Positions 1 through 44,977 of a stretch of 64,000 bases of DNA are shown here, one piece after another; within the stretch, counting starts at the first letter, position 1, and each line of letters begins with the position of its first letter. The notes under the pieces were generated by a model. The model did not search any database and was not told where the DNA came from. It saw only the letters and a list, made by a program, of their open reading frames with translations. The DNA is taken from sequence record OR062943.1. One strand, 5' to 3'. The position numbers and the translations under genes were made by a program. The stretch comes from Escherichia phage 241Ecol014PP.

Positions 1-477
1 TGGTATGGTAGCATTTTTGCGGCCCTGTTTACATTCAGTAATGTATGTATGACCCTTGTTGTGTGGGCGTTTAGACGTCTAGACGGTTGGAAGTCTACAG
101 GTCAATATCTAATCTATTGGCTGCTAACTATATCCCACACAAATAGTAAGAAATATGATTGTTATATGCGTAAACTGTAACTCATGTTATCAATCCCTGT
201 ATGTATCGCCAGTGGTGCGCATAATGGGTATTATGTTAAATTGCCCGTAATGATAACTATTCTCACAATGATAGGTATTCTCATTCACCCCACAAGATAG
301 GTTGCAAATGTTGTGCCACTGTGTGAACGGCCTAGCCTATTAATTTGCCTCACTGCCTTGATATTTGAGAATTGTTATAAGAATGAGAAGTATTCCCATT
401 TCGTCCGCCTGGCAGCACTCCAGTCGCTACGGCTCATGACAAGGCAGAACTGGACCTGTTCAGATATTTCTGGCTGA

Positions 478-1036
478 CTCTTCAGGTCTGTGTGGGAAAA
501 GCCAACCTCTCCGGCGGGGCAGGGGGTCATGACGGGAAAATTGCAGGTCAATTAAAAAATTTACGTGGTGTATGAAGCGCTCTTCAGGTAAGGCATATAT
601 TATGGGATGAAACCCTCTTCAGGCAATGATATTTGTGGGTGTGATATTTGCTGGAAAGCCAGATATGACGGGACTCCCGGCGGGGCAGGGGTAGTACAGA
701 CAGGGAAAATATGAGGATGTAGTTGGGGAAATTGATCAGACAGGTAGAGTATGGAATATGTTACAAGTATGTTAAATATGGAGGTTGAATATCTGTAGGA
801 TTTGTGTGTAAAATCAAAGACTTAAGGGGTGTTGTGGTATTTTCTATAAATAATTCAAGTTTAATAGGCAATATTTGTCTCTATCCGCTTTGTGTGGTAA
901 ACAGATTCAGATTAGATTGGTTTACAAGTGTATACATAATATACAAATTAAAGATACAAGAAACCCCCCTCCCCCTTCGGCTACCATTCACCTTTTCCTC
1001 TGACTGGTACTTAAACACTTATTCAGACTCTTCAGG
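478..1036. repeat. Dispersed 9-bp repeat CTCTTCAGG, 4 copies (478-486, 580-588, 615-623, 1028-1036) in ORF-poor region
   Basis: Direct reading; no ORF longer than 86 aa in 1-1300. Confidence 0.5.
505..715. repeat. Two copies of composite element CCGGCGGGGCAGGGG (511-525, 677-690) with ATGACGGGA (526-536, 663-673) in rearranged order
   Basis: Direct reading of both copies. Confidence 0.5.
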
Positions 1037-1386
1037 TTATCACCCATATATCATATGGCAGTGACTGGTGTCCTCCGGCCCCTCTTTCGTCACCCGTCCG
1101 CTTCGCCATGCTAATGCCATAGCCAATGGTTCGGTTGTTCACCCTGTTCACTCAGGTGTATCTCCATACCCCTTCAAACCGAAGAGAACAGAAAACCCGA
1201 ATTACTCGGTAAAAGAAAAGAGAAGAACTTAATTTTATCAGGATAGGCAAGAATGTCAAGGCATGACTGCTCACTAAACAAGCAAACAGTCATGTGTGGG
1301 AGGTAAGTGATTGTGGTGGTAGGAAATTTAGTTGAAAGATGTGTTATAGGTGCTTCCAGCACTTTAGCCGGGCAGCTAATTGTGTG

Positions 1387-1602
1387 TCAGTCCAGCGGTT
1401 CATCCTCTACTTCACTGAAATCAATATTCATGGTCTCTTCCCAACCATCGATCTCAGCACAAGAGTGGAGTTCTTTAGGGTTTACTCCCAAAGCCTCAGC
1501 AACAGAGTCTATATTTAACACCTCTGGCAGGTATGATTCATCGAATTCAAGGTAAATCAGGCCACGAGTGTTGTCAGCCCCACCAAATATTTCTATCTTC
1601 AT
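1387..1602 (-). CDS. hypothetical small acidic protein
   Basis: ORF track; same strand as adjacent leftward gene block. Confidence 0.4.
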   Translation of the reverse strand: MKIEIFGGADNTRGLIYLEFDESYLPEVLNIDSVAEALGVNPKELHSCAEIDGWEETMNIDFSEVEDEPLD

Positions 1603-1723
1603 AAAATCTCCTCTGGGAATGAGAGTGTGAACAGGGTTTTATACGTTCCAATGCACAAGAATTATACACGTTTGCCTCTTCAGGCCATGCTTTAGCATGA
1701 GGAACCTGTGCGGGCTCGGTGCT

Positions 1724-44125: not shown

Positions 44126-44200
44126 GCCCTGTTAGCTTAGTGGATAAAGCAGCGGCCTTCTAAGCCGTTGACACTGGTTCGAGTCCAGTACGGGGTGCCA
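44126..44200 (+). tRNA. tRNA-Arg (anticodon TCT), CCA encoded
   Basis: Manual cloverleaf: acceptor GCCCTGT/ACGGGGT (two G-U), D GCTT/AAGC, anticodon loop CTTCTAA. Confidence 0.75.
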
Positions 44201-44330
44201 AGTTCTTTTTAATGTAGCTTACTTTAGCAGAGTAAATCTTCGGCAAGTGGCGGTAACCACTTTACCGATACCTCATAGTTAGTGGTGAGAACACTAGCTA
44301 TTTTAAAAAGAATTTAAATATTAGTATTTA

Positions 44331-44418
44331 GGTGAGTTAATTCCGTAGGGGTAGCGGGGCAGACTGTAAATCTGTTATCATTGCGATTCGGGTGGTTCGA
44401 CTCCATCACTCACCACCA
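44331..44418 (+). tRNA. tRNA-Tyr (anticodon GTA), class II, CCA encoded
   Basis: Acceptor GGTGAGT/ACTCACC; anticodon arm GCAGA-CTGTAAA-TCTGT as in recalled E. coli tRNA-Tyr. Confidence 0.8.
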
Positions 44419-44532
44419 AATTTATATTTTTAAATGCATAAATCATACAGATAATGGCATTGATATTTATCGTCGTTTATACTAGTCACTAACTGCTCGA
44501 AAATCAGTGTCATTATCAGTATTGTTTATAAA

Positions 44533-44623
44533 AGAGGGTAGGGAGCAATGGTGCTCAAGCGGTCTTGAAAACCGTCCCGTTGAGGATGACTCGATGATGG
44601 TTCGATTCCATTATCCTCTGCCA
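44533..44623 (+). tRNA. tRNA-Ser (anticodon TGA), class II, CCA encoded
   Basis: Acceptor AGAGGGT/ATCCTCT; anticodon loop CTTGAAA; long variable arm. Confidence 0.7.
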
Positions 44624-44721
44624 TATTGTTGACCTTGTAATTAAGCGAAAGCCGGAAGCAGAACCGGATTATCAAATGTTACAGTCGTCATCGCCGACTA
44701 GCAACATGGTCAACATACTGA

Positions 44722-44820
44722 GCTAGGTAAGCCCTTTGGCAAGGGCGAGGATTTTTAATCCTGAAAATAGACGAGGTAGTCGTTGAATACATAGGTGGTT
44801 CGATTCCACCGCCTAGCACC
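44722..44820 (+). tRNA. atypical ~97-nt tRNA-like element; anticodon unassigned (possibly TTT)
   Basis: Perfect acceptor GCTAGGT/GCCTAGC and T-arm GGTGG-TTCGATT-CCACC, but 65 nt between acceptor and T-arm. Confidence 0.4.
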
Positions 44821-44825
44821 TTTTT

Positions 44826-44901
44826 GCTGATGTAGCACAATTGGTAGTGCAATTGATTTGTAATCAATAGGTTGCAGGTTCAAGTCCTGCCATCAGCACC
44901 A
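44826..44901 (+). tRNA. tRNA-Thr (anticodon TGT), CCA encoded
   Basis: Full canonical 76-nt cloverleaf; anticodon loop TTTGTAA. Confidence 0.85.
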
Positions 44902-44902
44902 T

Positions 44903-44977
44903 GGCCCTGTAGCTGGAAGGTTCAAGCAAGCGACTCATAATCGCCAGACGGTGGTTCAATTCCACCCAGGGCCACCA
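44903..44977 (+). tRNA. tRNA-Met or tRNA-Ile2 (anticodon CAT), elongator type, CCA encoded
   Basis: Acceptor GGCCCTG/CAGGGCC paired at 1-72; anticodon loop CTCATAA. Confidence 0.8.

Follow-up and report, generated by a model that had tools for sequence, protein, structure and literature searches.

The locus considered here raises a simple question: why should a phage genome leave more than a kilobase free of genes? The window, meaning the whole stretch analysed, comprises 64,000 nucleotides (nt) of Escherichia phage 241Ecol014PP (sequence record OR062943.1). Its first 1300 positions are poor in open reading frames (ORFs), the largest of which has 86 amino acids (aa; 804–1064, plus strand), as the initial annotation had observed. 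That annotation proposed a genome terminus or packaging region, a regulatory array or a small RNA (sRNA) locus. The best explanation is probably that the region is the genome end, or concatemer junction, of a Vequintavirus. Most of a direct terminal repeat (DTR) is predicted at 1–409. Beside it lie an oriented 9-nt box in several copies and an almost invariant block led by a promoter.

The gene-free gap

Positions 1–1400 are matched at 90–99% identity by more than 100 Vequintavirus genomes in GenBank. This similarity identifies the source of the window as a Vequintavirus, an rV5-like Escherichia coli myophage with a genome of about 137 kb. Window positions 1–1386 form the right-hand part (1.39 kb) of an ORF-free gap of about 2.5 kb, with convergent gene blocks on either side. 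In phage pangalan, about 1.1 kb separates the end of the last rightward gene from the point equivalent to window position 1, and the first gene of the leftward block is the counterpart of the following window gene.

1387–1602, minus strand: last gene of the leftward block; hypothetical protein of 71 aa, matching phrog_12108 at E = 2e-52 and annotated in relatives

The region thus adjoins the last leftward gene, where the initial annotation had placed it. Comparison with related phages reveals no ordinary coding sequence here. The gap was already mapped in the rV5 paper as a grey 'non-coding' box without ORFs, at which genes 163 and 164 form a convergent pair. A skew change was noted at that box, and no terminators were found.

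The direct terminal repeat

Terminal repeats of this genus have been delimited in three phages. Those of HdK5 and EdH4 are 458 bp long and were defined by abrupt ends of PacBio reads. The repeat of Gotham, 459 bp, was defined by twofold Illumina coverage and is annotated as a repeat_region at both ends of the record. Two laboratories using different methods delimited these repeats independently. The window was aligned with pangalan, with the record ends of YN3 and Aya, and with the two ends each of Gotham and HdK5. In the latter two phages, either copy of the DTR aligns to window 1–409 and stops at 409; the YN3 and Aya records end at the left boundary of the DTR. In window orientation, the DTR opens with GACAAGTTTTTC... 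at a point 49 bp left of window position 1 and closes at 409 with ...CGTCCGCC, so that the boundary reads ...CGTCCGCC↓TGGCAGC (the arrow marks position 409/410). As 49 and 409 add up to 458, window 1–409 corresponds to DTR positions 50–458 and 409/410 to one repeat boundary. The features of this part are as follows.

1–409, no strand assigned: DTR positions 50–458, from alignment with the ends of relatives, the Gotham annotation and the published 458/459-bp repeats
402–417, minus strand: DTR boundary 'A', a predicted terminase cut site, TGCCA↓GGCGGACG, with the cut between 410 and 409
215–241, no strand assigned: central DTR island GTGCGCATAATGGGTATTATGTTAAAT, invariant in the genus and conserved over three genera
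249–283, plus strand: tandem pair AATGATA(A/G)(C/G)TATTCTCA within the DTR, a third copy of which lies at 382–398; repeat_region in pangalan and nomo

By homology, positions 1–409 are most of the 458-bp DTR, which is present once at each end of the virion DNA. One physical genome end is accordingly predicted 49 bp left of the window, and the other repeat boundary at 409/410. The proposal of a genome terminus thus holds for 1–409, where homology and a shared boundary support it. It fails for the repeats (478–691) and the C-run (964) that the initial annotation had cited, as these are unique sequence beside the DTR; conservation is lacking, too, for two of the three repeat types. The likeness to the DTRs of HdK5, EdH4 and Gotham, and to the rV5 non-coding box, extends to 94–97% identity, identical boundaries and a position between convergent gene blocks. 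The window differs in showing one copy, which lacks the first 49 bp. Column identity over window 208–257 is 0.997.

The terminus in sister genera

Phage KPP-1, a Mydovirus, has a DTR of 514 bp, which PhageTerm assigns to the T7 type. This repeat also lies in an ORF-poor gap flanked by convergent blocks, and the same layout (convergent blocks, a gap of 1.8–2.5 kb and an internal DTR) recurs in Mydo, PVP-SE1, 4MG and GAP31. The regions of other genera were located through the KPP-1 DTR coordinates in the literature. Synteny through the DsbA-like gene failed to find them, because gene order differs. With the KPP-1 DTR as query, blastn matches Mydovirus and Seunavirus genomes.

The KPP-1 DTR aligns with the reverse complement of the Vequintavirus DTR, and three islands are conserved. 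(i) The boundary A motif, TG(C/T)(C/T)A↓G(A/G)CGGAC, marks the start of the KPP-1 DTR and occurs also in Mydo, PVP-SE1, 4MG and GAP31. (ii) The central island ATTTAACATAAnACnCnTTATnCGCAC (window 215–241) is common to the same five phages. (iii) The third island is boundary B, CTTGACAA(A/G)GAG...TTGT. Motifs of the form AATGAGAA..ATT occur in the KPP-1 DTR as well. Judged by these alignments, the terminus region is homologous across the subfamily.

The 9-nt box outside the repeat

The initial annotation had noted that CTCTTCAGG occurs four times. The copies, at 478, 580, 615 and 1028, are all on the plus strand. A fifth plus-strand copy begins at 1676, which makes a cluster of five same-strand copies within 1.2 kb (478–1684). 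Read on the minus strand, which is that of the genes, the box is CCTGAAGAG and points toward boundary A.

478–486, plus strand: CTCTTCAGG box 1, about 70–77 bp from boundary A; in 13 of 14 genomes
580–588, plus strand: box 2; in 13 of 14 genomes
615–623, plus strand: box 3; in all 14 genomes
1028–1036, plus strand: box 4, inside the invariant block; in all 14 genomes
1676–1684, plus strand: box 5, intergenic, before the 71-aa gene and 9 nt upstream of an extended −10 element TGTATAAT on the minus strand

The 64-kb window holds seven copies against 0.63 expected, and none of 100 shuffles reached seven. The two distant copies (17929 and 26448) read CCT-GAA-GAG on the coding strand and lie inside the leftward coding block. 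Conservation was measured in 14 related genomes, which also underlie the column counts given below. Variable columns make up 2 of 27 positions in the three boxes of 410–960 and 201 of 524 in their background (Fisher p = 4e-4). Box 4 is CCTGAAAAG in one metagenomic relative.

Among six genomes examined from the three genera, five carry CCTGAAGNG outside the DTR on the boundary A side and in the same orientation. The distances from boundary A are 77, 179, 214 and 628 bp in pangalan, 63 and 309 bp in 4MG, 63 and 386 bp in GAP31, and 173, 501, 525 and 553 bp in PVP-SE1. Mydo has its box at 316 bp, and KPP-1 a one-mismatch copy, CCTGAAGTG, at 317 bp. A short, reiterated motif near a cut site that is conserved among relatives, as found here, is expected of a terminase-recognition array. 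The 9-mer is most likely a protein-binding box, used for packaging or for transcription. The same-strand CCTGAAGAG boxes may be sites for a phage protein, and two candidates can be named, each tentatively and with equal weight: the small terminase as packaging initiator, or a regulator of a promoter or terminator at the terminus.

The boxes could instead be transcription elements governing read-through into the genome end, whether as parts of terminator–promoter cassettes or as the operator to which a phage regulator binds. This is a serious possibility, though we would not expect it to prove correct. A strong terminator (GGGAGCC-TGAAGA-GGCTCC followed by a T-run) has the box as its loop in KPP-1, Mydo, 4MG and GAP31. 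About 52 bp further in KPP-1, 4MG and GAP31, it lies within the promoter TTGACC-TGAAG(A/T)G-...-TATACT. The other genera also have it in a hairpin directly after the last gene. In the window, the copy ending at 1684 stands before an extended −10 element, as listed above, and that ending at 623 stands 10 nt before CATAAT, box 3 overlapping a weak promoter-like TTGCCT-16-CATAAT on the minus strand (626–599). All copies run in the direction of their gene block. The copies ending at 486, 588 and 1036, however, have no credible −10 element or stem, and the other 13 strong promoters of the window lack the box. Moreover, in all three genera the box clusters only beside one DTR boundary.

In the sister genera, the terminator and promoter belong to a cassette of about 85 nt (AAGGGAGCCTGAAGAGGCTCCTTTTCTTTT ... 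CTTGACCTGAAG(A/T)GTC..GTCGATTATACT) that is almost identical in KPP-1, 4MG and GAP31. These three phages span two genera, and their DsbA-like homologues are only about 57–60% identical to that of the present phage. Mydo has an identical terminator half. The loci compared are L019 1990–2075, L147 1309–, L145 864–950 and L146 907–990.

A literature search for the 9-mer returned unrelated papers only. A scan of IMG/VR for two CTCTTCAGG copies 15–45 nt apart was set aside as uninformative. It returned at least 120 unrelated contigs, for which coding repeats are the likely cause, as the 9-mer reads Pro-Glu-Glu.

The variable flank

Between boundary A and the invariant block, the sequence changes rapidly. 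Positions 410–960 are the most variable part of the region, with 36.8% variable columns. The two further repeats reported by the initial annotation lie here and are as described: CCGGCGGGGCAGGGG occurs at 511 and 677, and ATGACGGGA at 529 and 665, with their order swapped between copies. The 15-mer CCGGCGGGGCAGGGG and ATGACGGGA form a single module that is repeated with its halves exchanged.

410–470, no strand assigned: hypervariable stretch just outside the DTR, from alignments with relatives
511–537, plus strand: module copy 1, CCGGCGGGGCAGGGG followed by ATGACGGGA; lineage-specific, altered or deleted in most relatives
665–691, plus strand: module copy 2, ATGACGGGA followed by CCGGCGGGGCAGGGG; conserved, with the 9-mer in 14 of 14 genomes and the 15-mer exact in 9 of 14
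811–960, no strand assigned: AT-rich stretch (GC content 25–35%), hypervariable with insertions and deletions at about 870–960

The first ATGACGGGA has been lost from 9 of the 14 genomes through a 19-bp deletion, and the first 15-mer is altered in most. On this comparison, the duplication of the module is a lineage-specific event and not a required array. Beside boundary A (window 410–445), a 33–34-bp tandem duplication of GGCAGCACTCCAGT... / GGCAGCACTCCAGTCGCTAC... is carried by six of the 14 genomes (Gotham, nomo, S127, A112b, LL12 and Aya); the window has a single copy.

The invariant block and its promoter

Positions 961–1300 have fewer variable columns than any other stretch in the first 3.5 kb: 5.6%, against the 36.8% of the variable flank, 15.6% in the DTR and 19.9% in the 71-aa gene. 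The block is retained in the metagenomic relative L142, whose flanks are only 89% identical, and the similarity breaks off exactly past the minus-strand G-run. The corresponding C-run CCCCCCTCCCCC had been noted by the initial annotation and lies at 964–975, one base from its estimate of about 965–976.

961–1300, minus strand: almost invariant block, with no conserved ORF on this strand
964–975, plus strand: CCCCCCTCCCCC (minus strand, GGGGGAGGGGGG), where the block ends sharply on its distal side
1197–1209, minus strand: weak hairpin CCGAGTAATTCGG then GTTTTCTGTT, about 15–30 nt past the predicted start; invariant
1232–1259, minus strand: near-consensus sigma-70 promoter TTGACA-16-TGaTAAAAT, 11 of 12 matches with an extended −10 element, directed toward the DTR
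1262–1294, no strand assigned: perfect 8-bp palindrome CATGACTG-N17-CAGTCATG, just upstream of the −35 element; invariant in relatives

The promoter at 1259–1232 is invariant in all 14 genomes, and its −10 element is identical to that of rV5 promoter P074. The rV5 authors searched for promoters upstream of genes only, and an equivalent of this site is not listed. Promoters with at least 11 of 12 matches number 14 in the 64 kb, this one included, as compared with 1.7 in shuffles. Judged from strand skew, every one of the 14 runs in the direction of the local genes. Several of the others have a ribosome-binding sequence in the 30 nt after the site; the 1259–1232 promoter has instead a CU-rich tract and no conserved ORF. 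Transcription is predicted to start near 1225. The order on the minus strand is the CU-rich tract UUCUUCUCUUUUCUUUU, the weak hairpin (five pairs, one of them G-U), about 230 nt of G-rich sequence with box 4, GGGGGAGGGGGG, and then AT-rich sequence. There are two candidate 3' ends: the weak hairpin at 1209–1197, and the G-run, where conservation ends and beyond which the U-rich tail is not kept in L142. From these features, 961–1300 is a candidate non-coding transcript, cis-acting DNA or origin-like element.

Two minor observations concern this promoter set and its surroundings. Of the near-consensus promoters, the eleven that precede 36 kb use the minus strand and the three beyond 40 kb the plus strand; the point near 40 kb from which they diverge is also where the GC skew has its minimum. 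Past the terminator of the rightward block stands a 12-nt tract, TCTTCTCTTTTC (pangalan L001 2950–2961), whose exact inverse follows the orphan promoter (L001 5215–5226, window about 1215–1226), so that both edges of the gap have the same CU-rich tract on the strand that is transcribed. About 0.2 such pairs are expected by chance on a rough estimate, and the pair is not significant alone.

Could the block encode a trans-acting sRNA? Its transcript, of about 265 nt, or about 40 nt if it ended at the hairpin 1209–1197, would pair through the CU-rich 5' end with purine-rich ribosome-binding sites. An own promoter without a downstream ORF, as expected of an sRNA gene, is present: the near-consensus orphan promoter is followed by a CU-rich leader and by a hairpin with a U-rich tail, and conservation is extreme without an ORF. 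The hairpin is weak, however, the folding is unexceptional and there is no matching Rfam family. The sole complementarity found, 11 nt between 1141–1151 and 1627–1637 in the 5' untranslated region of the 71-aa gene, was rejected as a target pairing, as it is not maintained in relatives. We regard a trans-acting sRNA as unlikely.

A transcription-primed (R-loop) origin at 961–1300 is less probable still. In such an origin, a G5AG6 RNA would hybridize persistently to the C-run beside the AT-rich unwinding stretch 811–960. At the level of sequence features, the expected arrangement is found, with a promoter about 265 bp from the G-run followed by a stretch of 25–35% GC content. The GC skew changes sign at about 930–960, the right edge of the AT-rich stretch. 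Conservation ends exactly at the G-run, and the AT-rich part is free to vary. According to the rV5 authors, however, skew changes merely track the direction of transcription. Mydovirus and Seunavirus have a comparable C-run, but with the strand reversed relative to the DTR. Iterons and palindromes that are more origin-like lie across the DTR, beyond the window.

That other flank carries an origin-like repeat set at pangalan L001 3550–3930, about 70–450 bp left of window position 1. It includes four AAGGCAACTAT / ATAGTTGCC sites that alternate in orientation, a perfect inverted repeat of 18 bp (GACATAATATAAAAGCAG), and a 20-bp direct repeat ATGCAAACGAATGGCATGGC with copies 231 bp apart. About five (G)TGTAAAC copies lie in L001 just outside DTR boundary B. 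The sequence TGTAAACA is conserved in the boundary A flank of Mydovirus and Seunavirus as well.

The least probable reading, to which we give very little credence, is that the region is decayed or unannotated coding sequence with functionless repeats. Several GenBank records do carry short hypothetical ORFs in this region. Of nine ORFs tested in 49–1362, however, none matches PHROGs or passes a Pfam threshold, while the neighbouring 71-aa gene does match PHROGs. Indels in lengths that are not multiples of three disrupt the 62-aa ORF (2 bp) and the 86-aa ORF (net −22 bp), four of five changes in the 39-aa ORF are non-synonymous on a codon reading of the alignment, and A112b has lost the start codon (ATG) of an 18-aa ORF. 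Decay, moreover, would not keep 340 bp near-invariant, nor a 9-mer across genera. Small ORFs were rejected as an account of the region on the lack of a database match, the frameshifting indels and the lost start codon.

A model of the genome end

In the T7-type scheme, each concatemer junction carries one DTR, which is duplicated in the course of packaging, and the terminase has defined cut sites. Applied to this phage, the scheme would have the following parts. (i) Replication would yield concatemers with one copy of the repeat per junction. (ii) A phage protein would be recruited by the CCTGAAGAG boxes on the boundary A side. (iii) The terminase would recognize signals at the junction and cut at both boundaries, and duplication of the repeat would give each packaged genome two copies. 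(iv) The 961–1300 block would be transcribed leftward, toward the junction, as a non-coding RNA from the early-type host promoter 1259–1232. (v) Convergent transcription would be absorbed by the gap. The gap would be free of genes because cis-acting DNA is held there and because the two gene blocks converge. The RNA polymerase of T7 pauses at the concatemer junction, and this pausing is coupled to packaging initiation.

Two bolder proposals go beyond this model, and we doubt that either is correct. The box CCTGAAGAG could be a packaging recognition box common to the whole subfamily Vequintavirinae. The second proposal takes the 340-bp block to be a new promoter-driven non-coding RNA, or an R-loop element, and its junction-ward transcription would be needed for genome maturation or replication. 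If the latter were true, it would be a host-polymerase counterpart of junction pausing in T7.

Several points weigh against the reading of the region as a genome end with functional flanking elements. The ends of this phage are placed by homology with relatives and not from virion reads, and the rV5 paper called its genome circularly permuted. The enrichment and Poisson statistics for the box, including the comparison of 3.1 kb of flank (14 copies) with 73 kb of other strand-sequence (also 14) in the six genomes, overstate independence, since the genomes compared are related. The presence of the box inside terminator loops and promoter spacers elsewhere favours a putative role in transcription over one in packaging. 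For the block, no clear terminator was found. Folding of the whole block is unexceptional (z = −1.07) and on neither strand more stable than that of shuffles, and Rfam searches at gathering and permissive thresholds found nothing in 1–2400 and only tRNAs at 44 kb. No covariation is seen in the block, because it hardly varies, and the lack of distant homologues made covariation analysis impossible. A blastn search against phages found no homologue of 410–1300 or 940–1310 outside the genus. None was found in E. coli genomes, nhmmer against pieces of KPP-1, PVP-SE1 and 4MG gave a marginal DTR match only, and exact-word scans of IMG/VR and metagenomes returned close relatives only.

Comparison with known systems

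The concatemer junction of T7 has a terminal repeat flanked by the short-repeat arrays SRL and SRR, together with pacB. The present region resembles it in its short exact terminal repeat, same-strand arrays of short repeats outside that repeat, and a promoter directed toward the junction. There is no sequence similarity, and the setting differs: a 137-kb myovirus, the host sigma-70 polymerase, and a repeat of 458 instead of 160 bp. The packaging role of the elements is putative here.

Arrays bound by small terminases offer a second comparison. The R sites of lambda cosB, pacL and pacR of SPP1, and the pac hexamers of P1 likewise consist of several copies of one short asymmetric motif, within a few hundred base pairs of the cut and oriented toward it. 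The spacing of the present boxes is looser (77–628 bp), binding is putative, and in sister genera the motif also occurs in terminators and promoters.

T4-type phages carry mobile promoter/stem-loop cassettes (PeSLs). The conserved cassette of about 85 nt that holds the box in Mydovirus and Seunavirus, between small genes, is similar to these. Most copies in the window differ in lacking a stem and a −10 element. An R-loop origin at 961–1300 would be akin to T4 oriF and oriG, ColE1 and the primary origin of T7, and the C-run resembles mitochondrial CSB II.

Implications

The non-coding block and the 458-bp repeat are already published for the genus, and the core answer is known biology in one more genome. 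Elements that flank a terminus are ordinary in kind. Three features appear to lack a description in the literature searched: the boundary motifs shared across the subfamily, the 9-mer box with its constant orientation, and the invariant block led by a promoter.

Most of the roughly 120 deposited rV5-like genomes have been opened at arbitrary points, and their terminus region is left unannotated or filled with spurious small ORFs. The true ends (a 458-bp DTR, GACAAG... to ...CGTCCGCC) supply a common start point and correct the description as 'circularly permuted'. Phages of this type serve in therapy cocktails and against E. coli O157, and their packaging and terminus signals matter for engineering, transduction risk and quality control of assemblies. 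The 9-mer and the promoter-led block are cheap handles for finding a packaging signal, a non-coding RNA or an origin in the subfamily.

Further observations

About 19 GenBank records marked UNVERIFIED (MG0656xx, 'Campylobacter phage ...', labelled Campylobacter jejuni) are 90–98% identical to the region and are classified as Vequintavirus. Their host labels are probably wrong, or phage preparations were mixed.

A tRNA cluster lies at 44126–44977. ARAGORN assigns Arg, Ser, Thr and Met tRNAs together with a 99-nt 'tRNA-???' that has a 4-base anticodon (44722–44820). The Rfam calls are inconsistent with these: a tRNA is called at 44331–44415, and both the Ser tRNA and the 'tRNA-???' are missed.

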